Of a stretch of 64,000 nt of DNA, positions 5,404 to 59,813 are shown piece after piece. This stretch comes from an uncultured bacterium (lineage in GTDB: Bacteria > Methylomirabilota > Methylomirabilia > Methylomirabilales > CSP1-5). Within the stretch, counting starts at the first letter, position 1, and the number at the start of each line of letters is the position of its first letter. A program made the translations under genes and the position numbers. Under the pieces are notes generated by a model that saw only the letters and a program-made list of their open reading frames with translations, was not told the origin of the DNA and ran no database searches. The DNA is taken from the NCBI GenBank assembly GCA_964558395.1, contig CAZLDS010000013.1, positions 390-64,389 on the forward strand, given 5' to 3'.

Positions 5404-5491
5404 TTCGAATTCCGACATTCGAATTTCGGATTTGTGGACTCCCCCTTCTTGCTCTCGGCGACTTCGGACATCGGACGTCGGACATCGGACG
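5404..5491. repeat. Heptamer tandem repeats between U32 genes
   Basis: TCGGAC(A/G) x4 at 5464-5491 plus TTCGAAT-type units. Confidence 0.8.
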
Positions 5492-5498
5492 GTGAATC

Positions 5499-6449
5499 AT
5501 GAACCCTGAACCGTTTGAACTGAATACGTCGATCTCCAATATGAAGGACCTCATGGTCTCGGACCTCGGTCCGTATGACGCGATCTACCTCGGGAATCCC
5601 TACTGTCGGGACTATGAAGCCAATTTCTTGGAAGACCTGGATGATCTGCGGGCCGGCATCCGCCGCTGCCGTGAGAAGGGCCGTAGAGTCTATCTCACGA
5701 CCTATGCGGCCCCTCGAAACTACTTCCTGCCACAAATCCGTCGGGCAATTGCCGTTGCGGCAGAGGAAGGGGTGGACGCCGTTGAGGCGCACAACCTTGG
5801 GGTGGTTCGGATCGTTCACCGGGAGTTTCCCTCCCTCGCGATCCACATCGGCGGCTTTGCCAATGTCTACACCGATGCGGGAGCCGAGGTTCTCCGCGAC
5901 TACGGCGGGACCCGCGTGACGCCCAACTACGAGCTCTCCCTGGAAGAGATGGAAGGGATGGCGAAAAGTACCCGCCTCCCGCTCGAAATCCTCGTCCACG
6001 GGAAGGTGCCGTTAGGGATCTCCGACTACTGCTTCCTGTTGGAGTTCGAAAAGGCCTGGGGGATGCCATGTCCGGATCTGTGCCAGCAGGACCTGTTCCT
6101 CCGTCAGGGGGAGTGGGCGATGAAGTCGGTAGGGAAAGGGATCCTAAGCGGTCGGGATGTCTGTATGCTGGAGCATCTGCCGCGTCTCGGGGCGGCGGGC
6201 TTTCGCGTGTTCCGAATCGAGGCAATCTCGGAGGATCCCGCGTACCGTCGAGACATCGGGGCGGTCTACCGGGAGGCCTTGGAGCACGCGTTCAGTGATG
6301 GCTACGAGATTCGTGATGCGTGGTGGCAAAAGATCCAGGCCCACGCAAAGGTAGGAGTGTGTAACGGGTTCTACTTTGGTCAATCGGGACAACTTTATAT
6401 TGGCAATCAGCAATCGGCCGTCGGCGATCAGCTCAGGATCATTTCCTAA
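5499..6449 (+). CDS. U32-family Fe-S protein, UbiV-like
   Basis: YDAIYLGNPYC, VEAHNLG, ELS, PLGISDYC-x12-C-x3-C, FRIE; Cys layout matches UbiV. Confidence 0.88.
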   Translation: MNPEPFELNTSISNMKDLMVSDLGPYDAIYLGNPYCRDYEANFLEDLDDLRAGIRRCREKGRRVYLTTYAAPRNYFLPQIRRAIAVAAEEGVDAVEAHNLGVVRIVHREFPSLAIHIGGFANVYTDAGAEVLRDYGGTRVTPNYELSLEEMEGMAKSTRLPLEILVHGKVPLGISDYCFLLEFEKAWGMPCPDLCQQDLFLRQGEWAMKSVGKGILSGRDVCMLEHLPRLGAAGFRVFRIEAISEDPAYRRDIGAVYREALEHAFSDGYEIRDAWWQKIQAHAKVGVCNGFYFGQSGQLYIGNQQSAVGDQLRIIS

Positions 6450-6485
6450 TTGCTGATGGCTGACAGTGTGAATGAGGAGGAGACG

Positions 6486-7451
6486 ATGGTCGAGCTACTC
6501 GTGCCGGCGGGCAACATCGAAATGGTCGAGGCGGCCGTAGAAAACGGCGCCAATGCCCTGTATGTCGGGCCCAAGGGATGGAGTCGGCGGCGGGATGCTT
6601 TTGAAATCACCGATGAGTCGCTGCGGGACGCTGTTCGGATTGCCCATGCCGGGAGGGTGAAGGTTCGGGCAGGAGTCAATACGCATCCCACGTCTGCGGA
6701 GCTTCCCATGCTGCTACGACGCCTCGAGGTGTGGGTCCGGGACGGCATTGACGGAGTCATACTGAGCGATGTGGGGGTCATGGCGGCAGTCCACCGGGCG
6801 TTTCCCGCCCTGACCATCCATGCAAGCATCGGGGCCAACATCCTGAATGACGAAGACATTCGCTTGTATCGAGAGATCGGGGTCAGCCAGGTCGTGGCCG
6901 ACACCAAACTCTCGCTCAAGGAGCTGAGGTCGCGCCGGGAGATCGAGGTGGGGGTTGAAGTCTTGATTCACGCCAACAAGTGCTATACGTATCTGGGCAA
7001 GTGCTGGATGTCCCCCTATCACCGCCTCGAGCGAGGCCACGATGAAACTGGGAAAGACTTCTTTAAGGGAAGTCCGAACCGGGGCGGCCTGGACTACCGT
7101 GTCTGTCTCGAGGCGTGGAGCCTCTGGCGAGGAAATCAGGACCGGTGGGCAGACCGCGTGGCGCTCAAAAATGACGCCTTCTTCCTCCTCGACGATATTC
7201 CCCCCCTGATCGACATGGGAGTCCACACGCTCAAGATCCAGGGTCGCGAGTACGCGGTCGACCTGGTGGGCCGGATGGTCAAGTTTTACCGAGACCTCAT
7301 CGACGTGTACACGGCCGATCCCCAGGGGTTTGATCTCGGGCCCTGGAAGGCACGCCTCGCCGAGATTCAGGCGCAGCGGGATCTCGAACGAGCCAAGGGA
7401 ACTTTGGGTCTCTTCGACGAAGCGAGGCAACCGGTCCGCGCGTGCCGATAA
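6486..7451 (+). CDS. U32-family Fe-S protein, UbiU-like copy B
   Basis: Start ATG 6486 after gaggagg; ELLVPAGN, GANALYVG, ILSDVG, C-x6-C, LKIQGRE. Confidence 0.9.
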   Translation: MVELLVPAGNIEMVEAAVENGANALYVGPKGWSRRRDAFEITDESLRDAVRIAHAGRVKVRAGVNTHPTSAELPMLLRRLEVWVRDGIDGVILSDVGVMAAVHRAFPALTIHASIGANILNDEDIRLYREIGVSQVVADTKLSLKELRSRREIEVGVEVLIHANKCYTYLGKCWMSPYHRLERGHDETGKDFFKGSPNRGGLDYRVCLEAWSLWRGNQDRWADRVALKNDAFFLLDDIPPLIDMGVHTLKIQGREYAVDLVGRMVKFYRDLIDVYTADPQGFDLGPWKARLAEIQAQRDLERAKGTLGLFDEARQPVRACR

Positions 7452-7503
7452 ACGCGGTTAGAAAGTCCAGAAGGGCACTGCTGAGTGGGTGTAGGAGGGA
7501 TTA

Positions 7504-7749
7504 GTGGGGTGCAAGCGGTGCGGCAACGCCGAGGCCGGACAGTTTCAGCGGGTGGACAGCTTTGAGCGGATCGCGTTGGCCGATGACCCCGCCGATCCCA
7601 ATTGCGGCCACTACTACGTCGAGGTGGTCCACGTGATGCGTTGTCCCGCCTGTGAGCATCAGCAGGAAGCCATTGCGACGCGCTGGCCGTTCCAAACCCT
7701 GCGCGAGGCGCAGACGGAACGCGATAGCCATATCATCGGCAAGGGATGA
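7504..7749 (+). CDS. Small Zn-ribbon protein
   Basis: RBS aggaggg, GTG start; CKRC...C...CPAC. Confidence 0.6.
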   Translation: MGCKRCGNAEAGQFQRVDSFERIALADDPADPNCGHYYVEVVHVMRCPACEHQQEAIATRWPFQTLREAQTERDSHIIGKG

Positions 7750-7774
7750 CCGGCACAGGGGTGGGGGAGCTCTG

Positions 7775-8714: not shown

Positions 8715-8796
8715 ACCTCAGATAATTCTAATATAAACATCATATGACAATAGAACAATAAACCGCAATGGAGCATTTCCCCTCCCTAAGATCACT

Positions 8797-11470: not shown

Positions 11471-11828
11471 CCCGCATCTCCTGGCTCTCCAGGGCCTTCA
11501 GTAGCTCTTCGATAATCGCGTCTCGTTGATCTGCTTGGATATGCCAAAAGCCGTTCACCGGGATCTCGTCCTCGCTGTCCATCAGTTCCCCAATGTTAAC
11601 GATATGGGGACCCACCGCCGTCTGCCCCAAGAAATGTGAAAAGTAATCGACGAGGGCAAAAGACTCTCCACGCAGCGAGTGAACATCTACGGTCCCATGG
11701 TTAGGTCCGATCAAGAGAAAGAATTCCAGTTCCTCTTGGCTTCCGTCGCGGCGCGCACGCCCCTCCAGCTGGAAGCCCCCGCGTCCCGTCTCTTTCTTCA
11801 AGAGCCGAAATCGCCAACCCATGGTCAT
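11463..11828 (-). CDS. Hypothetical protein
   Basis: Start trimmed to ATG 11828 because the upstream extension is a heptamer repeat; 8-bp overlap with the 453-aa gene. Confidence 0.65.
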   Translation of the reverse strand: MTMGWRFRLLKKETGRGGFQLEGRARRDGSQEELEFFLLIGPNHGTVDVHSLRGESFALVDYFSHFLGQTAVGPHIVNIGELMDSEDEIPVNGFWHIQADQRDAIIEELLKALESQEMRDG

Positions 11829-11835
11829 TCTGACT

Positions 11836-11862
11836 GACGACCGACGACCGACGACCGACGAC
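11836..11862. repeat. Heptamer tandem repeat
   Basis: GACGACC x3.9; inverted partial copy near 11955. Confidence 0.8.
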
Positions 11863-11974
11863 AACAAAAACCATCGCCAGTATGCAGACAGTCGGAAAAT
11901 CCAATTTGATACGAAACGGAATTACTCATGCGTCTTCTTTCGGTCATGGGTTAACGGTCGTCGGTCAACGTTAG

Positions 11975-12307
11975 TCAAATGCTCCAGGGGCACCACGCCC
12001 CCCAACCAAAAGCTTGGTACTCATCCTCTCCCATCCACTCCGCCAAGTGGGTGCGATGCTCTGCCAAGGATTGGAACTCCTGATTAAACTCGAGCGTCAC
12101 GATGTGCCGGTCCTCGAGGCAACAGTACCGGATCGCATATCTGTTTTCAGACAAGGGGCAGGCATCAATCGGCCGAATGTCCTCGAACATGTGGCCAAGG
12201 TTTTCCAGGATCTGGTACAGGTCATAGGACCTTCCATTAATGGTCAATTCGACGCTCCCGGTCCCGAGTTCACCGAATCGCTTCTCCACGGTTTCCCTGT
12301 CGATCAT
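11975..12307 (-). CDS. Hypothetical protein
   Basis: 110 aa, RBS gaggagtagcgggg, protein-like composition. Confidence 0.7.
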   Translation of the reverse strand: MIDRETVEKRFGELGTGSVELTINGRSYDLYQILENLGHMFEDIRPIDACPLSENRYAIRYCCLEDRHIVTLEFNQEFQSLAEHRTHLAEWMGEDEYQAFGWGAWCPWSI

Positions 12308-12339: not shown

Positions 12340-12443
12340 TCCGGCGTCAGCGACTAGGTTAGAGACGGGACACCTCAGTCTTGAACCTAGGGTCTCCGGT
12401 CTCTTGTGTCTCGCTGCTGATTGCTGATGGCTGATAACTGAGC
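12340..12443. repeat. Heptamer tandem repeats
   Basis: GCTGAT(T/G/A) x3 at 12416-12436 plus GGTCTCC-type units. Confidence 0.75.
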
Positions 12444-13724: not shown

Positions 13725-13832
13725 CCAAAGACGGGAGACAGGGGACCGGAGACCGAAGGTTTCAGGTCTCAGGACTGAGGACTGAGGTTTCAGGCTTCGA
13801 ATGACCTCAGCACTCAGCCCTCAACGCTCAGG
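13725..13832. repeat. Inverted pair of heptamer arrays
   Basis: ctcaggactgaggactgagg facing cctcagcactcagccctcaacgctcagg; GGAGACC units. Confidence 0.8.
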
Positions 13833-14559
13833 TCTTCTCCCTCAACCATGTCACTGCCCGTTGGAAGACTTCAGGGTTGAATTTGAGGTCTATATGGTTG
13901 AACCAGCGGTGGAGGTACGGAAGAATCGTCGGGGGAAGGGGGATGTCGGGGTGCTGGAACGTCGTCACCGGAGCCAGGGTGCCCTGGGGGAGATCTCCTG
14001 CCATGCGGCGAATCCCTTCGATCAGGGTGAGGATATCTTGCTCCCCGTGCAGGAGCAGGACCGGCCGGTCGGGTTGCGTGACTTCCTCCATCTGGCGAAG
14101 CAATTGGAGAATATAGTCCGGCTGAGGGCTCCGTACCGTCGTTGTGCCGAAGGCCAAGAGCATCTGGCGTCCCTCCTCGGAGGGACGACTCACGACAGAG
14201 GGGGAGATGGCGACGACGAGGTCGGCGGACGAGATGAGGGCCAATCGCCCACCCAGGCTATGACCCAGCGCGGCGACTTTCCCGTAGCGACGGAGCCAGG
14301 CGAGGGCAGCCTCCAGATCGTGCCGCAATCCCTCGTCGAGGGGGACGGGGTGCTCCCCGTGCCCACGAATGTCGATGGTCATGCTCGCCCATCCCTCTTC
14401 GCAAAGTCGTGCCGCGATCCCCAGCATCTGCTCTTTGTTTCCGCCATAGCCATGCACAAGCGCCACGCCGCCGCGGGGGGTTTGGGGGAGAAAGAGGTAC
14501 GCGGGGACGGCATGGTTGTCCGCCGTTCGGAGATCCGTGACTCGGAGGAATTGCATCAT
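13828..14559 (-). CDS. Alpha/beta hydrolase
   Basis: LVHGYGG, DIRGHG, nucleophile elbow GHSLGG, LLLHGEQD. Confidence 0.88.
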   Translation of the reverse strand: MMQFLRVTDLRTADNHAVPAYLFLPQTPRGGVALVHGYGGNKEQMLGIAARLCEEGWASMTIDIRGHGEHPVPLDEGLRHDLEAALAWLRRYGKVAALGHSLGGRLALISSADLVVAISPSVVSRPSEEGRQMLLAFGTTTVRSPQPDYILQLLRQMEEVTQPDRPVLLLHGEQDILTLIEGIRRMAGDLPQGTLAPVTTFQHPDIPLPPTILPYLHRWFNHIDLKFNPEVFQRAVTWLREKT

Positions 14560-14621
14560 CCCCTCCTTCGTAGTGAAAAGTTCAGGGTTGAAGATTCAGG
14601 CCGAGGCGATTTCGGATTTCG

Positions 14622-14705
14622 AAGTGCGAATTTCGAATTTTTTTTGGGCGTTGGACGTCGGACCTCGGACGTCGACGAGCTCAGTCGAGCCGTCATCCGT
14701 CATCG
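14622..14705. repeat. Heptamer tandem repeats
   Basis: TTCGAAT-type then TCGGAC-type units, same order as at 5404-5491. Confidence 0.75.
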
Positions 14706-16955: not shown

Positions 16956-17340
16956 CGGGAATCCAAGCGGCTGTCCACGATCAGCTATCAGCAACCAGCT
17001 ACATGAGACCGGGCACGGCAGACCGGAAGCCTTCGGCTCAAAACTCAGGTCTCCAGTCTCCAGCCTCGTTGCTGGCAGACGCCCGCTGATTGCACACCAC
17101 TGCTGGCCGGCATTCGACTAGCCTCGGAGACAGATTGCCTCAAGAGGGAGAGCCACCCCATGGACGAGGATCATCCCGTTCCCTGCGAGTGCCCCTGCAC
17201 CCAGCACGAGGAGAAGCCTAATTCCCATCCGTTCGTTCAGTGGAGAGACCGCTCCCGGGATCTGTTCAGAGAACCCCGTGTTGAGTCCTCTTGTGATGTG
17301 CATGCCTGTGGCCATTCCGGACACTTCCGACGCTGCCACC

Positions 17341-17400
17341 CGGGCCTACCCTGAGCCAAGTCGAAGGGCCTGCCCTGAGTCTAGTCGAAGGGTACGCTTG
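17341..17400. repeat. Two tandem REP-like units CCCTGAG-N4/5-GTCGAAGGG
   Basis: ccctgagccaagtcgaaggg and ccctgagtctagtcgaaggg; relatives near 29580, 29680, 35385, 52250 and 54300. Confidence 0.7.
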
Positions 17401-21990: not shown

Positions 21991-23076
21991 TTGAAGGCGA
22001 CCCCGCTGAACGCCGTGCACCGCCAGATCGGGGCCCGGATGGTCCCGTTCGGGGGCTGGGATATGCCGGTACAATACTCCGGCATCCTGGAGGAGCACCG
22101 GGCGGTCCGGGGGACCGCCGGACTGTTCGACATCAGCCACATGGGGGAGATCGAGTTTCGGGGCCCGGACGCCCTCGCCGCGGTGCAGCGGCTCGTGACC
22201 AGTGATGCCTCCAAGCTCGCCGTCGGACAGGTCCAGTACGCGGCCCTCTGCTACGAAAACGGAACATTCGTGGACGACCTCACGGTGTACAAAGTGGCCG
22301 CTGATCATTTCATGTTCACGGTCAATGCGTCCAACATTGAAAAGGACTATCAGTGGATCACGGCGCACGTCGCCGGGAACGTCGAGGTGCGGAATATCAG
22401 TCATCAGACCGCGTTGCTGGCCCTGCAGGGCCCCAAGGCCCCGGAGATTCTCCGGAAACTCACCCCGGTGGACCTGAGCCAGATCCGATATTACTGGTTC
22501 CAGCGGGGCAAGGTGCTGGGTGCCGATGTCCTGATCTCCCGGACCGGGTATACGGGCGAGGACGGCTTCGAGATCTACCTGACTCCCGATAGGGCTGAGT
22601 CCCTCTGGCATCGCCTCGTGGACGAGGGTCGTGCCTTTGGCCTCCTCCCGGTCGGGCTGGGCGCACGCGATACGCTGCGGCTGGAGGCTAAGATGGCGCT
22701 CTACGGCAACGATATTGACGATGCCCATACGGTTTTAGAGGCCGATCTCGGCTGGATCGTCAAGTTCGACAAGGGGGAGTTCATCGGGCGGGCGGCGCTC
22801 GAGAAGCAGAAGGCGGCTGGGCTGACGCGGAAGCTCGTGGGGTTCGAGATGGTGGGGCGCGGGATCGGTCGCGCCCATTACAAGATCGTGAAGAACGGCA
22901 AGGAGATCGGGGAGGTCACGAGCGGCGCTCCGTCTCCGACCCTGGGCAAGAACATCGGGCTCGGGTATGTCGCCATCGAGCATGCCACGATCGGAACCGA
23001 CGTTGGCATCCTCATCCGGGGTGAGCCGGTCCCAGCCAAGATCGTTCCCACCCCCTTTTATAAGCGCAAACGTTAA
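21991..23076 (+). CDS. gcvT: Glycine cleavage T protein (aminomethyltransferase)
   Basis: PFGGWDMPVQYSGILEEH, LFDISHMGE, SRTGYTGEDGFE, GLGARDTLRLEA. Confidence 0.96.
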   Translation: MKATPLNAVHRQIGARMVPFGGWDMPVQYSGILEEHRAVRGTAGLFDISHMGEIEFRGPDALAAVQRLVTSDASKLAVGQVQYAALCYENGTFVDDLTVYKVAADHFMFTVNASNIEKDYQWITAHVAGNVEVRNISHQTALLALQGPKAPEILRKLTPVDLSQIRYYWFQRGKVLGADVLISRTGYTGEDGFEIYLTPDRAESLWHRLVDEGRAFGLLPVGLGARDTLRLEAKMALYGNDIDDAHTVLEADLGWIVKFDKGEFIGRAALEKQKAAGLTRKLVGFEMVGRGIGRAHYKIVKNGKEIGEVTSGAPSPTLGKNIGLGYVAIEHATIGTDVGILIRGEPVPAKIVPTPFYKRKR

Positions 23077-23150
23077 CAGTTCACCGTTCACGGATAGTGC
23101 AACCGACGCCGAGACTGAGGAGTGGGTTCTTACTGTGAACCGTGAACAGA
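23076..23150. repeat. Inverted heptamer pair between gcvT and gcvH
   Basis: gttcaccgttcacgg facing ctgtgaaccgtgaacag. Confidence 0.75.
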
Positions 23151-23165
23151 GCGGAGGGCATTATT

Positions 23166-28604: not shown

Positions 28605-29063
28605 ATGACGCACGGGAAGGTACTGACCACGAATCGGAAGGCCTACCACGATTACCACATCGAGGAGGCCTTTGAGGTTGGCATCGCCCTCACGGGAACC
28701 GAAGTCAAGGCGCTTCGGGAGGGGCGAGCGAACCTGCGGGACGGCTATGCGGCCGTGGAGGGGGGGGAGGTATTTCTCCTCAACTGTCATGTCAGCCCAT
28801 ACGCGCCGGCCAACCGCTTTAACCATGAGCCGCGCCGGCCCAGGAAGCTGCTGTTACACCGGGGGGAGATCCGGCGGTTGATCGGAAAGGTGCAGGAGAA
28901 GGGGCTCACCCTGGTGCCGCTGAGTCTGTATCTCAAGAACGGCCGAGTCAAGGTCGAGCTGGCGCTGTGCCGTGGCAAGAAGCAGTATGATAAGCGCGAG
29001 GACCTCAAGCGGCGTACCCACGAACGGGAAGTCGCCGACGCACTCAAGAGGGTCAAGAGCTGA
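28605..29063 (+). CDS. smpB: SsrA-binding protein
   Basis: NRKAYHDY, GIALTGTEVKALR, RKLLLHRGEI, GKKQYDKRE. Confidence 0.98.
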   Translation: MTHGKVLTTNRKAYHDYHIEEAFEVGIALTGTEVKALREGRANLRDGYAAVEGGEVFLLNCHVSPYAPANRFNHEPRRPRKLLLHRGEIRRLIGKVQEKGLTLVPLSLYLKNGRVKVELALCRGKKQYDKREDLKRRTHEREVADALKRVKS

Positions 29064-29157
29064 GAGTTGAGGGTCGAGGGTTCAAAAACAAAGGCCTGCA
29101 TCGTATGTATGTTTGCGAGTTGTAGTTCAAGCTCTCGACTCTAGACTCTCAACTATT
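29060..29157. repeat. Inverted heptamer pair between smpB and ssrA
   Basis: gagagttgagggtcgagggt facing gctctcgactctagactctcaact. Confidence 0.75.
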
Positions 29158-29180
29158 AGCGGCGGCGCTTCGCGCCGCAA

Positions 29181-29534
29181 GGGGGCGAAACGGTTTCGAC
29201 GGGGACAGGGGTTGGTAGAGGTAGCATGCCGAGGTCCCATCACCCTCGTAAAACCGATGGAAAACACACAACTGCCAACCATCAGCTGGCACTGGCTGCC
29301 TAACGAGTAGCCACGCCGCCCTTGCCTCGCTCACCGGGGAAGGTGAGGCGTCATACAGGTGAGCTGGCCTTTCTCTCCCGGCCCGGGGGAGGAGGGCGAG
29401 AACTCAAGGGCTGGCCGGTGAGTGGCTCTGCCTGTAGTGGTGCTCACCGGCGAGACATAACGTACAGGCTAAGCATGTAGAGACTTCTATGGGCCGGTTC
29501 TCGGACGCGGGTTCGACTCCCGCCGCCTCCACCA
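29181..29534 (+). ncRNA. ssrA: tmRNA
   Basis: 5' GGGGGCGAAACGGTTTCGAC, tag ORF ANHQLALAA* at 29274-29303, 3' GGTTCGACTCCCGCCGCCTCCACCA; directly after smpB. Confidence 0.95.
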
Positions 29535-40118: not shown

Positions 40119-43079
40119 ATGGGAGGAAAAAAACAGGGCCCGACCGTGTCGGTCTCGCCGGCGGTCGAGGCGATTCTGGAGGGACTCAATCCGGAGCAGG
40201 CGAAGGCCGTCACCGCTCGGGAAGGACCCCTGCTCATCGTTGCCGGCGCAGGGACCGGAAAGACAACGGTTCTGACGCGTCGGATCGCCTACCTCATCGC
40301 GGCCAAGCTGGCCAAGCCCAGCGAGATCCTCGCGCTGACCTTCACAGAGAAGGCGGCAAGTGAAATGGAGGAGCGCGTGGATCTTCTCGTCCCGTATGGC
40401 TATGCCGATGTCTGGGTCAGCACGTTTCACGCCTTTGGTGATCGCATCCTGCGCGAACAGGCGTTGACGCTCGGCCTCGATCCGGATTTCACTGTCTTGA
40501 CGCGCCCCGAGCAGGTGGTCTTCTTTCGCGAGCGTCTCTTCGAGTTTCCCCTCGCGTACTACCTCCCCCTCGGAGACCCCACACGATACATCGAGGGCAT
40601 CCTGACCCTCATGAGCCGAGCGAAAGATGAGGACGTGAGGCCGGCGGACTATCTCCAGTATGCCGAGGAGCTCGCCGCGCGGGCACGCACCCATTCGGAG
40701 GATGACGGTCTTGAGGAAGAGGCCCGGCGCCAGCGGGAGATCGCCCGCACGTACGAAAAGTATCAAGAGCTCATGGCCCGGGAGGGAGCGATGGACTTCG
40801 GGGATCAAGTGACCCTGACCCTCACGCTCCTTCGAAAGCATCCCGCGATCCTCGCCGAGTACCGGAATCGGTTCAGTTACATCCTGGTGGACGAATTTCA
40901 AGACACCAACTACGCGCAGTGGGAACTGCTCAAGGTGTTGGCCGGTCCGGAGGGGAATCTTACCGTGGTCGCGGATGACGATCAATCCATCTACAAGTTC
41001 CGTGGCGCTGCGGTGAGCAATCTATTGGACTTCACCGAGATGTACCCCCACGCGGAGCTCGTGGTTCTCAACGACAACTACCGATCGGGTCAGGCCGTTC
41101 TGGATGCGGCATACCGGCTGATCCGGCACAATGATCCCGAACGGCTGGAGGTACGGCGGGGGCTGGATAAGCGCCTCCGCGCTCTCCGCGAAGGGGGCCG
41201 CGGGGTAGAGCACCGCCACTACGACACGTTGGGAAGCGAGGCGGACGGAGTTGCGGCGCTGATCGAGGCGAAAGAGCGCTCGGGAATATACCGATATCGG
41301 GACATGGCCATTTTGGTGCGGGCCAACCGGGATGCCGATCCCTTCCTGCGGGCATTGAATATGAAGGGAATCCCGTGGCATTTTTCGGGGGCCCACGGGC
41401 TGTACGGTCGGGAAGAGATCCGCCTCCTTATGGCGTTCCTGCGGGTGGTGGCAGAGCCCGAGGAGAGTCAGTCACTGTATTTCTTGGCGGCGAGCGACTT
41501 GTACCGCGTTCCTCCGCTGGATCTCGCCCGGTGTAGCGCGGCAGCGCGGCGGATGAACCGGAGTCTCTTTTGGATCTTTAAGGATCCAGAGGGTCGAGGA
41601 TTGGATGACCTCTCGGGCGAGGGGCTGGCCACGATCCGGAAGCTCCTCGAGGATCTGGAGGAATATATCCGGAGGGCCCAGGAGCTCCGGGCTGGCGAGG
41701 TCCTGTACCATTTCCTCATGGAGAGCGGCTATCTGAAACGGTTAACGGCCGCCGAGGATGTCGCGAGTCAGATCCGGGTGCAGAATATCGCCCGGTTTTT
41801 TGAAAAGGTGCAGCGGTTCAGCGACATCGCGCTGCTCGACCGCGTGGCGCCGTTCGTCGAGTACCAAGAAAAACTCCTGGAGGCCGGTGAAGACCCGGCG
41901 GTCGCAGAGGCGGACGTGGACACGGATGCCGTGCATGTCCTGACGGTCCATAAGGCCAAGGGGTTAGAGTTTCCTGTGGTCTTCTTGGTGGGACTCACCG
42001 CCGACAAGTTCCCCAGTCGTGGGCGACGCGACCCGATTGAATTGCCGGAACCCTTGATTAAGGATCGGATCCCTGAGGGCGATTTTCGCCTCCAGGAGGA
42101 GCGACGTCTCTTCTATGTGGCCATGACTCGGACGAAGGAGGAGTTGTATTTCACCTCCTCCTGGGACTCCGGAAGGGGGAGGCCCAAAAAGGTAAGCCCC
42201 TTCGTGCTGGAGGCGCTCGACGTGCCGACGCCGGAGGCGGCGGGCTTCCGGGCCTCACCGGATGAAGTGATCGCGCGTTTCGCGCCCGCTGCCGCCGAGG
42301 TGTCAGGCGTGCTACCGCCGATGGATCCGGACGAGATCCTCACGCTCAGCCACTTCAGTGTGGACGACTACCGGACCTGCCCGCTGAAGTATAAGTACAT
42401 CCATGTTCTCCGGGTGCCCATTCGGGAACACCACACCGTGATCTACGGTAAGGCCTTGCATGATGCGGTCCAGGCATACTTTCGTCGGAAGATGCGGGCG
42501 CAGGGGATGTCGCTCGAGGAGCTCTGGGGGATCTTTGAAGGATCCTGGGTAAGTCGTGGGTTTCTTTCCCGAGAACACGAGGAACACCGCCTGGAAGCTG
42601 GGCGACAAACCCTCAGACAATTTTTCGCTCGGGAGGAAGCAGACGGGACGATTCCGACGTTTGTCGAAAAAGAGTTCGGCTTTGCGCTGGGCCGGAATCG
42701 GGTCATCGGCCGCTGGGACCGAGTCGATACGAGAGGAGACGAGGTCGTCATCATCGACTATAAATCGTCCGATGTCCGCCAGCCGAAGGAAGCAAAACGC
42801 CGCGCCCGCGAGAGCCTCCAGTTGGGGATCTACGCCCTTGCCTACGAGCAGACGTGCGGGCAGATCCCCACGCGCGTGGAGTTGCACTTTTTGGAGTCGG
42901 GCTTGCGTGGCGTCGCGGAAAAAACCGCCGGCGAGATCGAACAGACGGCGGCCATCATTCAAGACGTCGCCGCGGGGGTCCGAGACCGGAACTTCACCGC
43001 CAAGCCGGGCTACATGGCATGTGGCTATTGCGCCTACCGAGAGATCTGCCCGAGTACCTGGGGGACGGAGAGCAGTTGA
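40119..43079 (+). CDS. UvrD/PcrA-type SF1 helicase fused to a PD-(D/E)XK nuclease with a 4-Cys staple
   Basis: AGAGTGKT, VDEFQDTN, TVHKAKGLEF, EERRLFYVAMTR; C-terminal CPLKY, GRWDRVD, IDYKS, CGYCAYREIC. Confidence 0.92.
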   Translation: MGGKKQGPTVSVSPAVEAILEGLNPEQAKAVTAREGPLLIVAGAGTGKTTVLTRRIAYLIAAKLAKPSEILALTFTEKAASEMEERVDLLVPYGYADVWVSTFHAFGDRILREQALTLGLDPDFTVLTRPEQVVFFRERLFEFPLAYYLPLGDPTRYIEGILTLMSRAKDEDVRPADYLQYAEELAARARTHSEDDGLEEEARRQREIARTYEKYQELMAREGAMDFGDQVTLTLTLLRKHPAILAEYRNRFSYILVDEFQDTNYAQWELLKVLAGPEGNLTVVADDDQSIYKFRGAAVSNLLDFTEMYPHAELVVLNDNYRSGQAVLDAAYRLIRHNDPERLEVRRGLDKRLRALREGGRGVEHRHYDTLGSEADGVAALIEAKERSGIYRYRDMAILVRANRDADPFLRALNMKGIPWHFSGAHGLYGREEIRLLMAFLRVVAEPEESQSLYFLAASDLYRVPPLDLARCSAAARRMNRSLFWIFKDPEGRGLDDLSGEGLATIRKLLEDLEEYIRRAQELRAGEVLYHFLMESGYLKRLTAAEDVASQIRVQNIARFFEKVQRFSDIALLDRVAPFVEYQEKLLEAGEDPAVAEADVDTDAVHVLTVHKAKGLEFPVVFLVGLTADKFPSRGRRDPIELPEPLIKDRIPEGDFRLQEERRLFYVAMTRTKEELYFTSSWDSGRGRPKKVSPFVLEALDVPTPEAAGFRASPDEVIARFAPAAAEVSGVLPPMDPDEILTLSHFSVDDYRTCPLKYKYIHVLRVPIREHHTVIYGKALHDAVQAYFRRKMRAQGMSLEELWGIFEGSWVSRGFLSREHEEHRLEAGRQTLRQFFAREEADGTIPTFVEKEFGFALGRNRVIGRWDRVDTRGDEVVIIDYKSSDVRQPKEAKRRARESLQLGIYALAYEQTCGQIPTRVELHFLESGLRGVAEKTAGEIEQTAAIIQDVAAGVRDRNFTAKPGYMACGYCAYREICPSTWGTESS

Positions 43080-43126
43080 GAGTGGAGAGCGGAGGGTCGA
43101 GAGGGGCGATGGAGGACCTTCGTTGT

Positions 43127-43238
43127 GGCCAACGGGTCCTGTCGCCGGGCAGCCCAGCCGTCCTCGCTCCACCCATTCCCCTGTGGGGCCCTTCCGCTGC
43201 GGGCGGCTGGGCGCCTCGTTCGGCGCCACCCGTTGGCC
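43127..43238. repeat. Nested palindrome (REP/MITE-like or structured RNA)
   Basis: ggccaacgggt / acccgttggcc (11 bp) enclosing gcccagccg / cggctgggc (9 bp). Confidence 0.6.
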
Positions 43239-43369
43239 TCGCGACACGGATTTCGAGTGATGCGAGCGAGGTGTCGCCTACCTCGGAAGGAACCGTCTCG
43301 TCGTTCTTCGCGACTTCGGACCTCGGACGTTGAGGTGTGAACCATGAACTGGCCTGTGAACTGTGAACT

Positions 43370-43978
43370 ATGAATCATAAGACGTTGAAAATTGGGATTG
43401 ACGTTGACGATGTCCTCGCCGACTCCCTGCCTGAGTATCTTTCGGCCTTCAACCGTCGGTTCGGACTTCAGATTCCCGTAAACGAGGCGGCGTGGGAAGT
43501 CTTCCGACGCCACCCCGACATTCCTGCCGAAGAGATCCGGGCCTTTTTCCAAGAACTGTACCGCGCCGATTTCCTGGGTTCGCGTCCGCTCTTGCCTGGC
43601 GCGCGCGAAGGGGTTGAGCAGCTCCATCAAGCAGGCCATCGGCTCTTCATCATCACCGGGCGTCTGAGATCCGACCGGCAGATCACCGAGCGGTGGATTG
43701 AGATGCAAGGTCTTTCTGCCTTCTTTCAGGAAATCGTAGACAGAGACGGGCTTGATATGCCGCTGCACAAGCGCCGGGCCGTTGAGCAGTTCCGCCTCGA
43801 TGTGTTACTGGAGGATGAGTACGAGGTCGCCCTGGCGGCGGCTGAGGTTTCCGCGCGGGTCCTTCTCTTTGACCGACCGTGGAATCGCGGATCCCTCCCA
43901 TCCAACGTCTTTCGCGTTCGTTCATGGCCTGATGCGGTCGCCTGTCTCGGCCGACAGGGACGTTCGCCCGTCTCCTAG
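43370..43978 (+). CDS. 5'(3')-deoxyribonucleotidase-like HAD phosphatase (NT5C)
   Basis: IGIDVDDVLAD, LFIITGR, LLEDE, LFDRPWN. Confidence 0.85.
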   Translation: MNHKTLKIGIDVDDVLADSLPEYLSAFNRRFGLQIPVNEAAWEVFRRHPDIPAEEIRAFFQELYRADFLGSRPLLPGAREGVEQLHQAGHRLFIITGRLRSDRQITERWIEMQGLSAFFQEIVDRDGLDMPLHKRRAVEQFRLDVLLEDEYEVALAAAEVSARVLLFDRPWNRGSLPSNVFRVRSWPDAVACLGRQGRSPVS

Positions 43979-45041: not shown

Positions 45042-46244
45042 TCACCGGCAGGCGCTTCCTCGAGTCGGCCAGCGGGGATCAGGTCGGGCGTCGGGGGCAG
45101 TGGCCTCGGGTAATGATGCTTCGCGTTTCGCATCTTCGAGGGCCTCCTCGAGCCACTCAGGCGGCAAATCCGAAGTCGGAGGCACTGTAGTCTCGGGTAT
45201 GGATGGTGGTCGCTTCGTAGATTCACGCCCCTTTTCCAGCAACTCGGGGGGTGGCTGCTCAGGAGCAGGCGGCGGAGTGGCCTCGCGCATGGCTGGTGCG
45301 CGCTTCTGAGCGTCAGGCGCGTCTTTGAGGCGGCTGGCGGCTGGCAGATCGGGCGCGGCATGCCGTGTGGCTTCGGGCGTGGATGATGCGCGCTTGCTGG
45401 CCTGACGCCCCTCTTCCAGCCAACCGGGGGGTGGCTGGTCAGGAGTAGGCGGTGGCGTAGTCGTGGGTGTGGATGATGCACGCTTCTCATCACCACGCGG
45501 GCCCTTGATGCGGCCGGTGAACGGCTGCTCGGGCGCAGGAGGGGGTGTGGCCGTGGGCCCCGATGGGGCGGGCTTCTCGGCCTCAACCGTTTCTTTGAAG
45601 CGGCCAACCGGGGCCTGTCCAGGAACGGGAGTCGGGGCGGTATCCACTGTAGGTTGGTTGTGCTTGCTCACGCCCAACACGTTAGGGGCGGGGTGCGGTG
45701 CGATCTCGGGGGGAGGCGGGATCGGCTGCTCAGCCTTGCGCCGTTCGTCCTGATCTCGCATCCCTTCGAGGAGGAGATGTTCGGGGCTAATGCCCACTTT
45801 GACGATGAATTCTTGGGCGTCCAGCATGATGTCATCATCGGTAAAGACGTCCGCCATCTCGAACCGGAAGAAGCCAGTGTCCCAGTGGAGGAATTCCAAG
45901 ATTACCAGCTCGATTTGGTGCTGGACCGCCTCTTGGAGGGCCGCGTGTGTGACGAGGCCTTTCTCGACGAGGATCGCGCCGAGCCGTTTATTTTGTGCAG
46001 AGAGGTGCTGCAGCTCGAGGGCGGCCATCAAGCTCTTTTCGGTGAGATGCTTCTGGGTAATCAGAATTTCGCCCAAAGTATTTCGCGTCGTGTTAGAGGT
46101 GGCATAGATGACCTTGCCCTTCTTGAAACCGATTTCCCCGTAGTCTCCGAGCCGGCTCAATCGCAGTTTCCCTGTTTTCATGCAGAAGCTCAGAATTTGG
46201 AGAAGATCGGGAACGGTCAGATCTAGTCGTCCTATCAAGGCCAC
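45042..46244 (-). CDS. DUF4388 + MshEN-like protein with Pro-rich repeat tail (probably continues to 44828 across a frameshift)
   Basis: GTG after aaggaggtg; LLQILSFCMKTGKL, LGEILI, RLGAILVEKGLV, WDTGFFRF; tail repeats. Confidence 0.8.
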   Translation of the reverse strand: MALIGRLDLTVPDLLQILSFCMKTGKLRLSRLGDYGEIGFKKGKVIYATSNTTRNTLGEILITQKHLTEKSLMAALELQHLSAQNKRLGAILVEKGLVTHAALQEAVQHQIELVILEFLHWDTGFFRFEMADVFTDDDIMLDAQEFIVKVGISPEHLLLEGMRDQDERRKAEQPIPPPPEIAPHPAPNVLGVSKHNQPTVDTAPTPVPGQAPVGRFKETVEAEKPAPSGPTATPPPAPEQPFTGRIKGPRGDEKRASSTPTTTPPPTPDQPPPGWLEEGRQASKRASSTPEATRHAAPDLPAASRLKDAPDAQKRAPAMREATPPPAPEQPPPELLEKGRESTKRPPSIPETTVPPTSDLPPEWLEEALEDAKREASLPEATAPDARPDPRWPTRGSACR

Positions 46245-46507
46245 AGGCTTCACCTCCTTTTTCTCCGGTGAAAGGGGTTTGGGAACGAGGGTTTCCAGTT
46301 CCGCATGTACCTTATGAATTGCTAGCAATGGCCGTGCCATGGGAAATGAATCCTTTAATTTCGCTGTGTTATGTCGCCTGGAGTGCTGAGCTCATGGGAC
46401 AGGCCGAGAGAGTTCACTCTATGGCCTTACGCGAGATTCCTCTGAAGTTGTTTTATGAAGGAGTCGTGTGTTACCGTAGGAATCACGTGGGGTCGGAGAA
46501 GAGAACG

Positions 46508-47257
46508 GTGATTGAAGCGATTACCTTTGATTTGTGGGACACATTGATCCGAGAAACCCCCGATTCGGCGCAGAAGGTCAATGAGGCCAGGATCCGGAAC
46601 CTGTATGTGTTTCTCGAGGGCTACGAGTATCCGGGCACCCTGGAACAGGTCGAGAAAGCCCATGAAAGGATGGGAGAACACCTCGAGGAGATCTGGGCGC
46701 GCAATGAGGATGTAGGTGCCGAGGCACAGGTACAGCTTTTCCTCGAGGCGTTGGATGGTGAGTGGCACATGCCCCAGGACCGTATGGCCCTGTCCAACCT
46801 GGAGTGGGCTTATGTCTCTGCCGTGCTTCACGCTTCGCCCGTCTTGAACCACGGGGCTGCGGAGTTGCTCGACAGACTGAGGATGCAGCACCGATTAGGC
46901 CTCATCTGCAATACCGGCCGCGTCCCAGGGGCCATGCTCAAAATCATTCTCCAGCGCCTGGGGATCCTGGAGCACTTCGACGTCTTGACCTTTTCCGACG
47001 TGGTGGGGATTCGGAAACCGGACCCGCAGATCTTCCATCTCACCCTCGAACCTCTTAGCGTTCCCCCGGAACGGGCCCTGCATGTCGGGGATAACATCTC
47101 TGCCGACATCCTGGGGGCACGGGGGGTGGGGATGTGGGCGGTGTTTCTCGGTCCCGCTGGGGTCTCCCTTCCCGAGGACACGCGGGCTCGGGCGATCATG
47201 GCCCTTGAGGAGCTTCCCCGGGTCCTCGAGGAGGTGGCCGAAGGAGTTCGCGGTTGA
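46508..47257 (+). CDS. HAD-family hydrolase
   Basis: ITFDLWDTL, LICNT, RKPDPQIF, LHVGDNISADILGA. Confidence 0.9.
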   Translation: MIEAITFDLWDTLIRETPDSAQKVNEARIRNLYVFLEGYEYPGTLEQVEKAHERMGEHLEEIWARNEDVGAEAQVQLFLEALDGEWHMPQDRMALSNLEWAYVSAVLHASPVLNHGAAELLDRLRMQHRLGLICNTGRVPGAMLKIILQRLGILEHFDVLTFSDVVGIRKPDPQIFHLTLEPLSVPPERALHVGDNISADILGARGVGMWAVFLGPAGVSLPEDTRARAIMALEELPRVLEEVAEGVRG

Positions 47258-47315
47258 CAGTTCACAGTCGGACAAAAACAGAAAAAACGACTATCGGTGA
47301 ACCGTGAACAGTGAC
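47255..47315. repeat. Inverted heptamer pair
   Basis: gacagttcacagtcg facing cggtgaaccgtgaacagtgac. Confidence 0.7.
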
Positions 47316-47323
47316 TCTGCCTC

Positions 47324-55592: not shown

Positions 55593-56044
55593 GCGCTTGT
55601 CGGTATGTCGCCGGGGTGCTCGTGTGCGGCACCCTGGTGGTGGCGGTTCAGGCGGCGGGCGGAGGCGAGGTTCGAATTAAGGACCGGGTGGCGGTGACGG
55701 TCGAGGTGGCCAGAACCGAGGCAGAGAAGGTGCGCGGCCTCAGTGGGCGGGACGGCCTCGCGCCCGCACAAGGGATGCTCTTCGTCTACGAGATCCCCGT
55801 GCGGCCGGTCATGTGGATGCAGGGGATGCGCTTTCCAATTGATATTCTCTGGATTCGGGATGGCCGGGTTGTGGATCTGGTGCGGGAGGCGAAACCGCCG
55901 ACCCCGGGTGAAGCACCCGAGGTGTTTGTGCCACGCGAGGAGGCTCAGTACGTACTGGAAGTGCCTGCCGGCTTTGCAGAGCGGAACGGGATCGCCCGCG
56001 ATGATCCGGTCCAAATAGGGTTGGGGGAGAGGAGAGGCCAGTGA
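55589..56044 (+). CDS. DUF192 family protein
   Basis: VEVART...GLSGRD, GMLFVY, WMQGMRFPIDILW, YVLEVPAG. Confidence 0.9.
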   Translation: MSACRYVAGVLVCGTLVVAVQAAGGGEVRIKDRVAVTVEVARTEAEKVRGLSGRDGLAPAQGMLFVYEIPVRPVMWMQGMRFPIDILWIRDGRVVDLVREAKPPTPGEAPEVFVPREEAQYVLEVPAGFAERNGIARDDPVQIGLGERRGQ

Positions 56045-57420
56045 GGCGCACCGGCTGGATAACCCTGGGAATGCTCATTCTATGTTTCCTGGCGCGAGGG
56101 GGTGAGGCCTGGGAGCTGGAGGTGTCGGAGACCACACTGGAAAATGGGCTCAAGGTCCTGCTCTTGGAAGACCATAAGGCGCCCGTGGTCACGTTTCATA
56201 TTTGGTACCGGGTCGGATCCCGCAATGAAGAGTTTGGCCGCACCGGACTCGCGCATCTGATGGAGCACATGATGTTCAAGGGGAGCGAGAACATCGGAGG
56301 ACAGCAGTTCAGCCAGATCATCAGACGGAACGGTGGGCAGGATAATGCCTTTACGAGCCAGGATTATACGGGGTACTTTGTGACGTTGGCCTCGGATCGG
56401 ATCCGGCTGCCGTTGGAGTTGGAGCCGGATCGGATGGCCAACCTGCTGATGGACCCCGCCGAGGTGACGCGCGAGCGCAGCGTCGTCATGGAAGAGCGCC
56501 GGCTCCGCACGGAAGACGACCCGACGAATGCGTTATGGGAAGAAGTCCAGGCAGCCGCCTTCAAGGCTCACCCTTACGGGAATCCGGTCATTGGCTGGAT
56601 GAACGATATCCGCAAGCTCAAGCGCGCGGATCTTCAGGCTTTCTACAAGACATACTATGCTCCAAATAATGCGGTCGTGGTCGTGGTTGGAGACTTTGAG
56701 CGTGCGAAGCTCCTCCCGAAGATCGAAAAGGCCTTTGGCTCGATTCCACGAGGCCCCGATCCCCCGGCAGTCCGCAGTGTCGAGCCCCCCCAGGATGGGG
56801 AACGGCGCGTGATCCTCACGCGCGACGATGCAAAGCTTCCCTCCATCACGGCCGCCTATCATGTCCCCAACTTAACGAATGCGGACAGCTACGCCCTCGA
56901 CGTCCTGGAACTCATCCTCGCCGGCGGCAAGAGTGCCCAACTTTACCGCCACCTTGTCTACGAGAAGGAGCTTGCTCTGAATGCGGGCGCCTTCTATTCC
57001 CGAGTCTCTGTGGATCCCGACCTCTTTGCTGTTTACTGCACCCTCGCTCCAGGGAAGACGGTCGAGGAAATGGAAGCGGCGCTAGCCGCCGAGATCGAAC
57101 AACTTCAAACCCGGTTGGTCTCGGCTCGGGAGCTGCAAAAGGCCAAAAACCAGATCGAGGCATCGTTCATCTTCAGCAAAGACTCGATCTTCACCCTGGC
57201 TCGTCAGCTTGCCGCGAATGAGATGGTGGCTGGGTGGCGGTCTGTGAATACCTATCTACCCGGGATTCGAGCCGTGACCCGCGAGGATATCCAGCGGGTG
57301 GCACGGAAGTACTTAACGCCTGAAAATCGGACCGTCGGAATCCTGATGCCAGGGCGACCAAGCCGCAATCAGCAGTCAGCGGTCAGCGATCAGCCACAAT
57401 CCGGAGCGACTCAGCAGTAA
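56041..57420 (+). CDS. M16 zinc peptidase, catalytic subunit
   Basis: GLAHLMEHMMFKG (HxxEH), NAFTSQD, YYAPNNAVVVVVGD. Confidence 0.95.
   Translation: MRRTGWITLGMLILCFLARGGEAWELEVSETTLENGLKVLLLEDHKAPVVTFHIWYRVGSRNEEFGRTGLAHLMEHMMFKGSENIGGQQFSQIIRRNGGQDNAFTSQDYTGYFVTLASDRIRLPLELEPDRMANLLMDPAEVTRERSVVMEERRLRTEDDPTNALWEEVQAAAFKAHPYGNPVIGWMNDIRKLKRADLQAFYKTYYAPNNAVVVVVGDFERAKLLPKIEKAFGSIPRGPDPPAVRSVEPPQDGERRVILTRDDAKLPSITAAYHVPNLTNADSYALDVLELILAGGKSAQLYRHLVYEKELALNAGAFYSRVSVDPDLFAVYCTLAPGKTVEEMEAALAAEIEQLQTRLVSARELQKAKNQIEASFIFSKDSIFTLARQLAANEMVAGWRSVNTYLPGIRAVTREDIQRVARKYLTPENRTVGILMPGRPSRNQQSAVSDQPQSGATQQ
57367..57394. repeat. Heptamer tandem repeat inside the 3' end of the M16 gene
   Basis: NNTCAGC x4 (aatcagc agtcagc ggtcagc gatcagc). 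Confidence 0.8.
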
Positions 57421-57473
57421 GGAGTGGACAGAGATTCCGAAGCCTTTTGGGCTGACAGCCCGGAGCATCTACG

Positions 57474-58808: not shown

Positions 58809-59034
58809 CGGCGAGTCCTTGCTCCTACTCCGGCCTCCGACCGTCCATGGTGCCCGTTGACAAGGGGCCTGAGAAAGGATAGATTGCTCTCCGTTTCATG
58901 CAGACCGTGACCCTTCAAGGTCATCCCCTCTAAAAGGCTGACAAGGAGATCTGGATCGGTCCTCCAGTGCGGACGGAAGACGATACGAAGAGGCATTGCT
59001 GTCAATTTTGACGTAATGGGGAATTACGAACCAG

Positions 59035-59673
59035 ATGGAACACCGAGGTCATCCCCGGTTCCCGCTCCGGATGCCGGTCCTCTGCGAGGGCCTGCCGGGC
59101 TGTGACTATCGTACCCTGGGCCTCACCCAGAATGTGAGTCATGGTGGGCTCCTCCTTGCCGTTCCACGGCTCGTCGGGCCGGGGACCCCAGTGAATCTGC
59201 GTCTCTTGACGGGGGACCGGATCTCCCGCGTTGAGGCGGGGGTCGTCTGGACAGCCGACACTTCCTCCAGTCTCATGGGGTTGCGGTTGATGATTTTGAA
59301 CAACGTTGACCGCCTCGCCTGGGAACATCTTATTACTTTCCAGGTGGGTCCGACGCCTCGGGCCTCCCTTCGGCTCCCTATTGATTTGGAAGTGACATGT
59401 CTGCTCGCTCCAGATACCCGCTTGCCGGGTCAGGTCGAGAATCTCAGTGATGGTGGCATGATGATCGTCCTCCCCCAGGCGGTACTACCTCAAACGCGTG
59501 TGCGCGTGGTCGTCCCCGCGTGGCTGATCCTCCCCCCGGTCGAAGCGGAAGTAATGTGGAACCGAGCCAACCCCACGGTGCAAGGGGTGGTCCACGGTCT
59601 GCATTTCCTCGCGAGCGATATGGGGAAGGAACTCTTCCTGATTGGCACCCTCCTTCGGCAGCTCCTGCACTAA
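59035..59673 (+). CDS. Tandem PilZ-domain protein
   Basis: RGHPRF...NVSHGG and PRASLR...NLSDGG. Confidence 0.85.
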   Translation: MEHRGHPRFPLRMPVLCEGLPGCDYRTLGLTQNVSHGGLLLAVPRLVGPGTPVNLRLLTGDRISRVEAGVVWTADTSSSLMGLRLMILNNVDRLAWEHLITFQVGPTPRASLRLPIDLEVTCLLAPDTRLPGQVENLSDGGMMIVLPQAVLPQTRVRVVVPAWLILPPVEAEVMWNRANPTVQGVVHGLHFLASDMGKELFLIGTLLRQLLH

Positions 59674-59700
59674 AGTAAACCAATGACCTACGCGAACTTT

Positions 59701-59813
59701 GGAGCAATGGAACAGTGAAACAATAGAGCAATAGAGTGATCTTAGAGGGGAATGCCTTATTGTGGTTCGAGAGGGGCTTCAAGGGTGGTCTAGTGTTCTA
59801 TTGTTCGATTGTC
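59701..59813. repeat. Inverted heptamer pair
   Basis: ggagcaatggaacagtgaaacaatagagcaatagag facing gtgttctattgttcgattg; same family at 8741-8812. Confidence 0.75.

Follow-up and report, generated by a model that had tools for sequence, protein, structure and literature searches.

Heptamer arrays at gene junctions of the window

The DNA analysed here (the window) is a stretch of 64,000 nucleotides (nt) from an uncultured bacterium of the Methylomirabilales, positions 390-64389 of contig C13 in an assembly of 3.27 Mb (172 contigs, 59% G+C). Its genes are ordinary housekeeping genes, including three U32-family genes, gcvT-gcvH-gcvP, smpB with the gene for transfer-messenger RNA (tmRNA), an AddA-like helicase-nuclease gene and a rodZ-like gene. 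The nearest relatives of an acyl-CoA-synthetase-type gene at 1365-3041 (88-91% amino acid identity) were found in metagenome-assembled genomes labelled Methylomirabilota, NC10 or Methylomirabilales. At junctions between such genes lie short tandem arrays of 7-nt units (heptamer arrays). This class of dispersed repeat runs through the Methylomirabilales lineage, and hundreds of the arrays occur in this genome.

A first-pass annotation of the window had proposed that repeats of period 7 are pervasive at its gene junctions, and arrays at the loci it named were confirmed by Tandem Repeats Finder and by direct reading. The spans read in this way included 11832-11862 (GACGACC), 14609-14704, 16980-17067, 43336-43374 and 57369-57394, within the wider loci described below. 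An array was scored wherever a base was identical to the one 7 positions further along in at least 12 of 14 comparisons. The window held 11 such arrays; 100 shuffles within 60-nt blocks gave 0.2 on average and never more than 2. The same test gave 3 arrays of period 8, whereas periods 4-6 and 9-12 each gave 0-1. Tandem Repeats Finder returned 17 rows of period 7, and every other short period had no more than a handful. Genome-wide, at a threshold of 16 out of 21 lag matches, 226 regions of period 7 were counted against 9 after shuffling. Periods 4, 5, 10, 11 and 13 were at background level, periods 6, 9 and 12 showed only the modest excess that coding repeats predict, and period 14 was a harmonic of 7. 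Period 7 is therefore enriched over periods 5-9 in the window and in the genome alike, as the annotation had supposed. With genes called crudely by a longest-open-reading-frame (ORF) caller, approximately 75% of 204 strict period-7 arrays were intergenic, against only 17-22% for periods 6 and 9. Chance and assembly artefact were ruled out as sources of the arrays, by the shuffles and by independent assemblies of relatives and of other samples.

The first array locus of the window begins 20 nt past the stop of a U32-family gene (4270-5382) with approximately 4.6 units of ATTTCGA/ATTCCGA (5402-5433). This is followed by a plus strand composite (5460-5526) in which 4.4 TCGGACN units (5460-5491) run in phase into TGAAY-NN units, and the latter (5499-5526) form the ATG (5499) and first four to five codons of the next U32-family gene. 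In the array-bearing orthologues of the U32 gene at 5499 (loci L002-L010) the N-terminus MNR(E/A).. is encoded by ATGAACCGTGAAC; distant orthologues have a 20-40-nt junction without an array and the N-terminus MTRS.. A second composite of this kind lies at 43312-43378 on the plus strand, where TCGGACN and then TGAACNN units are phase-locked and end at the start of the next gene. A conserved motif of approximately 20 nt, CCYCCTCGCTCTTSRCGAC, was seen directly 5' of TCGGACN arrays at several unrelated junctions and their orthologues (window 5443-5461 and 43295-43313; C11:58497 and C81:692; loci L002, L003, L005 and L009). The motif, the TCGGAC units, the TGAAC units and the start codon may together form one larger dispersed element.

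Most of the other loci show arms facing each other. At 6403-6463 an inverted pair with a CAATCAG-type and a GCTGATG-type arm spans a U32 stop (6447-6449) and the next U32 start. A GACGACC array of 4.4 units (11830-11865) faces an inverted GGTCRTC arm (11941-11970; whole locus 11830-11972), and nested pairs of GGAGACC (four units) with AGGTCTC and of CTGAGGA (three) with CCTCAGC (four) lie between two minus strand genes at 13729-13831. Three ATCAGCN units are followed by GAGACCG/CAGACCG opposite GGTCTCC/AGTCTCC at 16978-17069. On the plus strand, two GTTCACN units, a 42-nt loop and two NNTGAAC units (23077-23150) occupy the interval between the stop of gcvT (23076) and the ribosome-binding site that precedes gcvH (start 23166). 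Also on this strand are four units of GAGAGTT/GAGGGTC, a 50-nt loop and three of CTCTCGA/CTCTAGA between smpB and the tmRNA gene (29056-29157), where the TGA that ends smpB is part of the array, and GTTCACA, a 27-nt A-rich loop and two GTGAACN units between the HAD hydrolase and rodZ-like genes (47258-47315). The smpB gene is placed directly upstream of the tmRNA gene (28605-29534; tag peptide ANHQLALAA), with the heptamer hairpin between them.

The remaining loci are a GGTCTCN array followed by a GCTGATN array (12391-12441, the latter at 12415-12435); a locus between an alpha/beta-hydrolase gene and the next minus strand gene, with 4.6 units of ATTTCGR, a run of eight T, four TCGGACN and two CCGTCAT units (14608-14704); a plus strand GAGAGTG-type array containing the stop of the AddA-like gene (43073-43096); and five ATCAGCN units on the plus strand (57359-57397) within the 3' end of an ORF at 56041-57420.

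Repeats of other kinds also lie in the window. A repeat of approximately 115 nt at 43124-43239, resembling a miniature inverted-repeat transposable element (MITE), has 11-bp terminal inverted repeats (GGCCAACGGGT ... ACCCGTTGGCC) and at least eight genome copies at 83-90% identity; it is unrelated to the adjoining heptamer arrays and had no match in Rfam. A 180-nt unit is repeated 1.8 times (74% matches) at 45225-45551, in a minus strand ORF (45042-46340), and a 24-nt unit, GGGCCTACCCTGAGCCAAGTCGAA, 2.1 times at 17342-17392, in a spacer without a called gene.

Unit structure and joining of families

Arrays consist of 2-6 units of exactly 7 nt. Within a unit five to six positions are fixed (83-96% conserved) and one to two are nearly free. 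When the threshold was loosened, 91 arrays belonged to TGAAC-Y-V and 56 to TCGGAC-N, the two largest families; ATTTCGR, CTGAGGA, GACGACC, GAGAGTY, GGAGACC/CAGACNT and GCTGATN came next. The nine different consensus units listed by the first-pass annotation reduce to fewer related families, several being variants of one another. Adjacent units shared the base at position 6 of the TGAAC unit in 49% of cases, against 43% expected from base frequencies alone. As neighbours are nearly independent at the free position, plain duplication of a neighbouring unit with uniform decay would not yield this pattern.

Families also join in a preferred order. With both arrays on one strand, TCGGAC led into TGAAC eight times and the reverse order occurred once; in seven of the eight the 7-nt phase was carried over. 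Beyond the window, at C4:15000-18000, a run of short genes was observed in which every spacer is stacked with three to four array families (TCGAGAG, CTCAGTC, GCTAAGA, ATTTCGG and TCGGACN).

Inverted pairs, polarity and folding

Genome-wide, 42 neighbouring array pairs were inverted. Usually two inverted arms flank a loop that is unique and 10-100 nt long, and each strand can then fold as an imperfect hairpin. The polarity of the arms was fixed: GTTCANN preceded NNTGAAC in 17/17 pairs, GTCCGAN preceded NTCGGAC in 8/8 and ATTTCGR preceded YCGAAAT in 5/5. No family was seen in both layouts among the 42 pairs, the three largest families showing one polarity in 30/30. Since an inverted pair is its own reverse complement, this polarity rule is independent of strand. 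The same arm order was found in 11/11 readable neighbouring plus/minus matches from other genomes of the genus.

The hairpins were stable, with energies from -17 to -58 kcal/mol. Pairs in the window were folded as RNA and compared with shuffled controls. The five inverted pairs named by the first-pass annotation were all real, and four folded beyond their shuffles (z -3.7 to -4.9): 13725-13838 (z -3.72, -46.1 kcal/mol), 23074-23153 (z -4.10, -31.5 kcal/mol), 29056-29160 (z -4.93, -40 kcal/mol) and 59712-59816 (z -3.97). The fifth, 47252-47318, was weak (z -1.67). The pair at 59701-59813 had been taken for period 7 and is of period 8, with two units of CAATAGAG opposite three of TCTATTGT (59721-59812). 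In addition, 6400-6465 gave z -4.28 (-28.4 kcal/mol) and 11830-11972 gave z -2.4. The first-pass annotation described different families stacked in one common order at 5404-5491, which lies between plus strand genes, and at 14622-14705, which lies between minus strand genes. At both loci a degenerate pair is the better reading, with ATTYCGA and TCGGACN as its two arms. Their cores TYCGA and TCGGA are complementary when wobble is allowed; pairing through these cores is weak, with a fold z of -1.4 for 5400-5495.

Dispersed arms of family-specific polarity, and the replacement of whole cassettes between strains (see below), are what would be expected if the arms were terminal inverted repeats of small mobile elements, either MITEs or repetitive extragenic palindromes (REPs) moved by a RAYT-type (REP-associated tyrosine) transposase. 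We regard this as highly improbable, as a substantial second genome copy was found for only 1/30 loops, some arrays are unpaired or part of phase-locked composites, and the true MITE-like repeat of the same window looks quite different. Moreover, despite its hundreds of arrays the genome is without a Y1/RAYT transposase gene (no match to PF01797).

Further candidates for the origin of loops or arrays were discarded. Captured or mobile DNA as the source of the loops was rejected because 29/30 lacked a substantial second genome copy, and a RAYT/IS200 transposase as driver because it is absent from the genome. Ku-dependent end joining was also rejected, since Ku was present in 4/46 genomes of the order and did not track the arrays.

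Position relative to genes and transcription

Among spacers of 40-400 nt, a strict array was held by 8.7% of co-directional, 2.0% of convergent and 3.7% of divergent spacers (tandem versus convergent, p = 0.003). The excess in tandem spacers persisted in both length classes and when only high-scoring genes were used. For 34 pairs in tandem spacers, the left arm began a median of 3 nt past the upstream stop (24/34 within -8 to +11), while the distance of the right arm to the next start codon was looser. In the window, arrays begin at or contain the stops of gcvT (23076), smpB (29063), the helicase (43079) and the HAD hydrolase (47257). Arrays can supply the stop codons, start codons and first codons of genes, and gene callers are misled by this. 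A stop and a start are both needed on one strand, which points to the polycistronic transcript or, failing that, to spacer DNA that is transcribed.

The abutment of TGAAC arrays on start codons was found to be partly an artefact, as GTGAAC and ATGAAC contain start codons and the gene caller takes the longest ORF. The orientation of unpaired arrays relative to transcription was not significant (TGAAC 23 versus 12, p = 0.09), and most of these 'unpaired' arrays have a decayed partner arm.

In a Methylomirabilis relative of the sister genus with a closed 2.75-Mb genome (G008), locus-identical RNA-seq contigs spanned gcvT, the homologous hairpin and gcvH in two runs. The first-pass annotation had placed the arrays within operons, and this part of it is borne out by the preference for co-directional junctions and by the co-transcription, in the relative, of arrays with both neighbours. 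Intrinsic terminators were rejected as an explanation, with no T-run or U-tract after the hairpins, convergent spacers the poorest in arrays and read-through in G008. Metatranscriptomes sharing words with the smpB-tmRNA stretch matched only conserved mature tmRNA parts, from many organisms, and are therefore uninformative on the hairpin between the two genes. The tmRNA was also the sole Rfam match in the window, the spacer at 43000-43450 having no match even at E up to 1.

Turnover between species and strains

Comparison of orthologous junctions, a check that the first-pass annotation had proposed, showed that the array family, and the presence of any array, vary between relatives. At gcvT-gcvH, species of the genus have GTTCA-type hairpins with unrelated loops, one species has a CAGTCAG/CTGACAG hairpin, and members of the sister family have GTTCA-type arms again. 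Arms were kept and loops were not, both here and at the U32-U32 junction, across genus and family. The recurrence of GTTCA-type arms with unrelated loops shows that arms are kept or renewed over distances that randomise loops.

Strains were compared using contigs from other public metagenomes whose flanking genes are 94-99% identical to those of the window. These showed that the arrays change by gain and loss of 7-nt units and by replacement of whole cassettes, with the position kept. Single-unit changes were an extra TCGGACT at 5484 and one 7-nt unit missing at 17058. Whole elements were replaced, with breakpoints at their outer edges, at 5382-5451 (one related strain, with 109 other letters including AAGAGCG-type heptamers), 14640-14700 (two related strains), 23072-23152 (two) and 29041-29181 (one).

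Contigs of related strains were also seen to end or misjoin at 5382-5491, 11822-11981, 14603-14705, 23072-23152 and 29041-29181, the wrong joints including opposite strands of different array loci. Arrays thus break metagenome assemblies at gene junctions, and are a cause of fragmented NC10 assemblies.

Such turnover raises the possibility that the arrays are a functionless by-product of a mutational process biased to 7-nt steps, for which slippage tied to the polymerase footprint and transcription-associated slip-out with repair are candidates. Arrays would then turn over fast and persist where they do little harm, a hairpin being tolerated since it is looped out of the mRNA. We consider this possible and somewhat unlikely. 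It would account for differences of 7 nt or of a whole cassette between near-identical strains, for different families or no array at one orthologous junction, for unit sequences that change from family to family within the order at a constant period, and for the lack of arm-to-arm matching and of strand asymmetry described below; the polymerase-footprint idea is itself published (quoted in PMC4692102). However, variation is limited to one to two of the seven positions, where neighbours are nearly independent, and three families of the order have retained the TGAAC core. Junk should be best tolerated in convergent spacers, yet these are poorest in arrays, and slippage leaves the fixed polarity unexplained.

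The first-pass annotation had itself proposed a sequence-tolerant, length-specific generating mechanism. Length specificity stood, in that the period remains constant while the unit sequence drifts (GTCCAAN, CATTYCG, GGTTAGG and AGTGTTG in sister families), the phase is kept from TCGGAC to TGAAC in 7/8 and one orthologous junction is of GTTCA type or CAGTCAG type depending on the species. Sequence tolerance was not complete, as a few families with five to six fixed positions dominate and the TGAAC core is shared by three families of the order; the arm polarity of each family is fixed as well. The present analysis does not bear out the generating mechanism itself.

Spread across the class

Three consecutive GTTCANN units occurred 20-200 times in each of 11/11 sampled genomes of the genus. 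They reached numbers in the same range in the one other sampled genus of the family (genome G120, genus g2) and in sister families f2 and f3, and were rare or absent in families f4-f7. In approximately 108 genomes of other orders of the class they were absent, except for three genomes with 1-4 matches each. A reversed control pattern was at or near zero in all genomes, with at most 2-3 matches per strand.

Families without GTTCA arrays keep a period-7 excess with other units, as sampled in 20-kb pieces. One such genome (G123) had 12 arrays per 100 kb (GTCCAAN, CATTYCG and GCTSATG) and another (G124) had 10 per 60 kb; G008 was weakly enriched (5 per 100 kb) and G014 had none in 40 kb. In the surroundings of the acyl-CoA-synthetase gene we counted 12 arrays in 76 kb of the nearest relatives, 2 in 101 kb of the next tier and 0 in 274 kb of other phyla.

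A proposed hairpin role behind the stop codon and its alternatives

The best-supported working model, which we favour tentatively and at a little less than an even chance, is that the arrays act, much as REPs do, as a hairpin in operon mRNA immediately after the stop codon. In a polycistronic mRNA such a hairpin would block 3' exonucleases, or alternatively would act as a processing or translation-uncoupling structure, setting the relative output of neighbouring cistrons. The model is preferred because period 7 is enriched, the arrays are mostly intergenic and the hairpins are stable; because operon junctions are favoured, the left arm is anchored at the stop and the relative shows co-transcription without a U-tract; and because arms are kept while loops are not, strains differ by unit or cassette and a parallel exists in Xanthomonas (PMC4692102).

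Several results weigh against this model. Arms of the same locus matched no better than arms of different loci at the free positions, and in the GTTCA family native arms paired at -0.95 and chimeric arms at -0.99 kcal/mol per nt. No advantage of the transcribed strand was found: among 34 co-directional pairs 16 fold better and 18 worse on it (p = 0.71). The RNA hairpin alone does not explain the period, nor the strict arm polarity, as reversing the arm layout would hardly change the stability of such a hairpin. At gcvT-gcvH, two close relatives, G120 and G006, have a 20-nt spacer and no array, and thus no single copy is essential. The RNA-seq runs of G008 were gapped over the hairpin in 2/4 cases and such libraries may contain DNA, and the gene calls behind the position statistics are crude and home-made. 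A G-U wobble signature of the transcribed strand was also looked for in these pairs, and none was found. With two tests for selection on RNA pairing negative, the RNA-structure or protein-binding code that the first-pass annotation had offered as its other explanation was not borne out.

The same lack of transcription-strand bias, and with it a symmetry at the level of DNA, would suit arrays that are read by heptad-reading or nucleoid proteins and that organise or mark transcribed junctions. Units with five to six fixed and one to two free positions, set in 2-6 contiguous copies as direct and inverted sets of strict polarity, with cores conserved across the order, are also consistent with such a reader. 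We nevertheless think it improbable: more than eight unit families would require as many readers, the family at a locus is swapped between strains without evident change of its neighbours, the arrays lie inside operons and not at promoters (divergent spacers being poor in them), and a candidate protein was not found.

Fixed polarity, phase-locking and the 5+2 structure of the unit are not explained by any simple version of the REP-like, by-product or heptad-reader models. The upkeep of the 7-nt register and of arm polarity could be due to unit slippage with exchange between arrays, or to a heptad-reading protein. A bolder proposal, which we rate as distinctly unlikely, is that 7-nt registers at the transcribed operon junctions of the Methylomirabilales are written or maintained by a dedicated process that has a polarity of its own. 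Speculative candidates for this process would be reiterative synthesis of units onto both 3' ends at a lesion, or a heptad-reading protein driving exchange between arrays. If true, a register-writing process would explain together the period, the polarity (30/30), the phase-locked hand-over between families, the one to two free positions and the cassette swaps, and might also explain STRR-type heptamers (see below) in other phyla.

Comparison with known heptamer and palindromic repeats

Short tandemly repeated repetitive (STRR) sequences are heptamers of heterocystous cyanobacteria, reportedly described by Mazel et al. in 1990. They comprise several tandem 7-nt families dispersed in non-coding DNA, including operon spacers. 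The first-pass annotation's comparison with STRR was apt, as here too tandem heptamer units are dispersed at many non-coding loci. The hosts differ (Methylomirabilota/NC10 rather than heterocystous cyanobacteria), and the STRR units CCCCAGT, TTGGTCA and CAACAGT gave no two-unit run in the genome. To our knowledge, a regular inverted-pair layout with fixed polarity is not a described feature of STRR. Although heptamer repeats have been known from bacteria since 1990, we know of no explanation of their excess over other unit lengths.

REPs and bacterial interspersed mosaic elements (BIMEs) of enterobacteria and pseudomonads stabilise upstream mRNA, and copies close to a stop affect translation of the upstream gene. 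Like them, the arrays described here are hundreds of extragenic, transcribed, imperfect palindromes, often just past stops within operons and variable between strains. Whereas REPs are a single conserved unit of approximately 35 nt tied to RAYT transposases, the arms here are tandem heptamers of many families.

The omega repressor of inc18 plasmids, a ribbon-helix-helix protein, binds runs of 7-bp units that are direct and inverted, with one dimer per heptad. Its operator arrays resemble ours in having contiguous 7-bp units with a conserved core in both orientations; the omega heptad unit itself is absent from this genome.

In Beggiatoaceae, TAACTGA occurs in 2-6 tandem copies at approximately 170 intergenic sites, mostly a few nt from a start codon (MacGregor, 2015, PMC4679880). 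This is one unit, nearly always direct and with a single inverted set reported, and its arrays lie close upstream of start codons (PMC4679880). In our genome inverted pairs dominate, and the tightest anchor is the upstream stop codon. The TAACTGA unit is absent from this genome. Heptanucleotide elements are also listed in the Geobacter metallireducens genome paper (PMC2700814). Full-text searching of the literature returned no publication that connects Methylomirabilis or NC10 with repeats of this kind.

The closest parallel is with Xanthomonas, where GGGAATC shows an excess of heptamers only, at approximately 190 sites (89-93% intergenic), including 70-75 cases of two convergent arrays, mostly between aligned ORFs and nearer the upstream ORF (PMC4692102). 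The heptamers of Xanthomonas differ between close species, the Nostoc unit is GGGGAYT, and Rehm et al. (2015) quote the idea of a polymerase footprint favouring 7-nt slippage (PMC4692102). The present arrays share with these systems the over-representation of period 7, approximately 200 mostly intergenic sites, convergent inverted pairs, a location mostly between aligned ORFs near the upstream one, and length and sequence that vary between relatives (PMC4692102). Arrays of GGGAATC and GGGGAYT are absent from this genome. In contrast to the one G-rich, G-quadruplex-capable unit of Xanthomonas, we found many families without G-tracts and with five to six fixed and one to two free positions (G runs are lacking in TGAACYV, TCGGACN and ATTTCGR, the main units). 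Also unlike Xanthomonas, different families join in phase here and arrays supply stop and start codons.

The arrays of the Methylomirabilales extend to a new lineage, and in a form of their own, the heptamer repeats already described in cyanobacteria and Xanthomonas. The clade is unusually rich in them, with many families per genome, strict polarity, phase-locked junctions and a sharp post-stop preference in operons. It also offers testable contrasts, of period 7 with 6 or 8, of polarity kept with polarity flipped and of operon junctions with convergent spacers; strain turnover is visible in public metagenomes, and Methylomirabilis enrichment cultures with RNA-seq exist.

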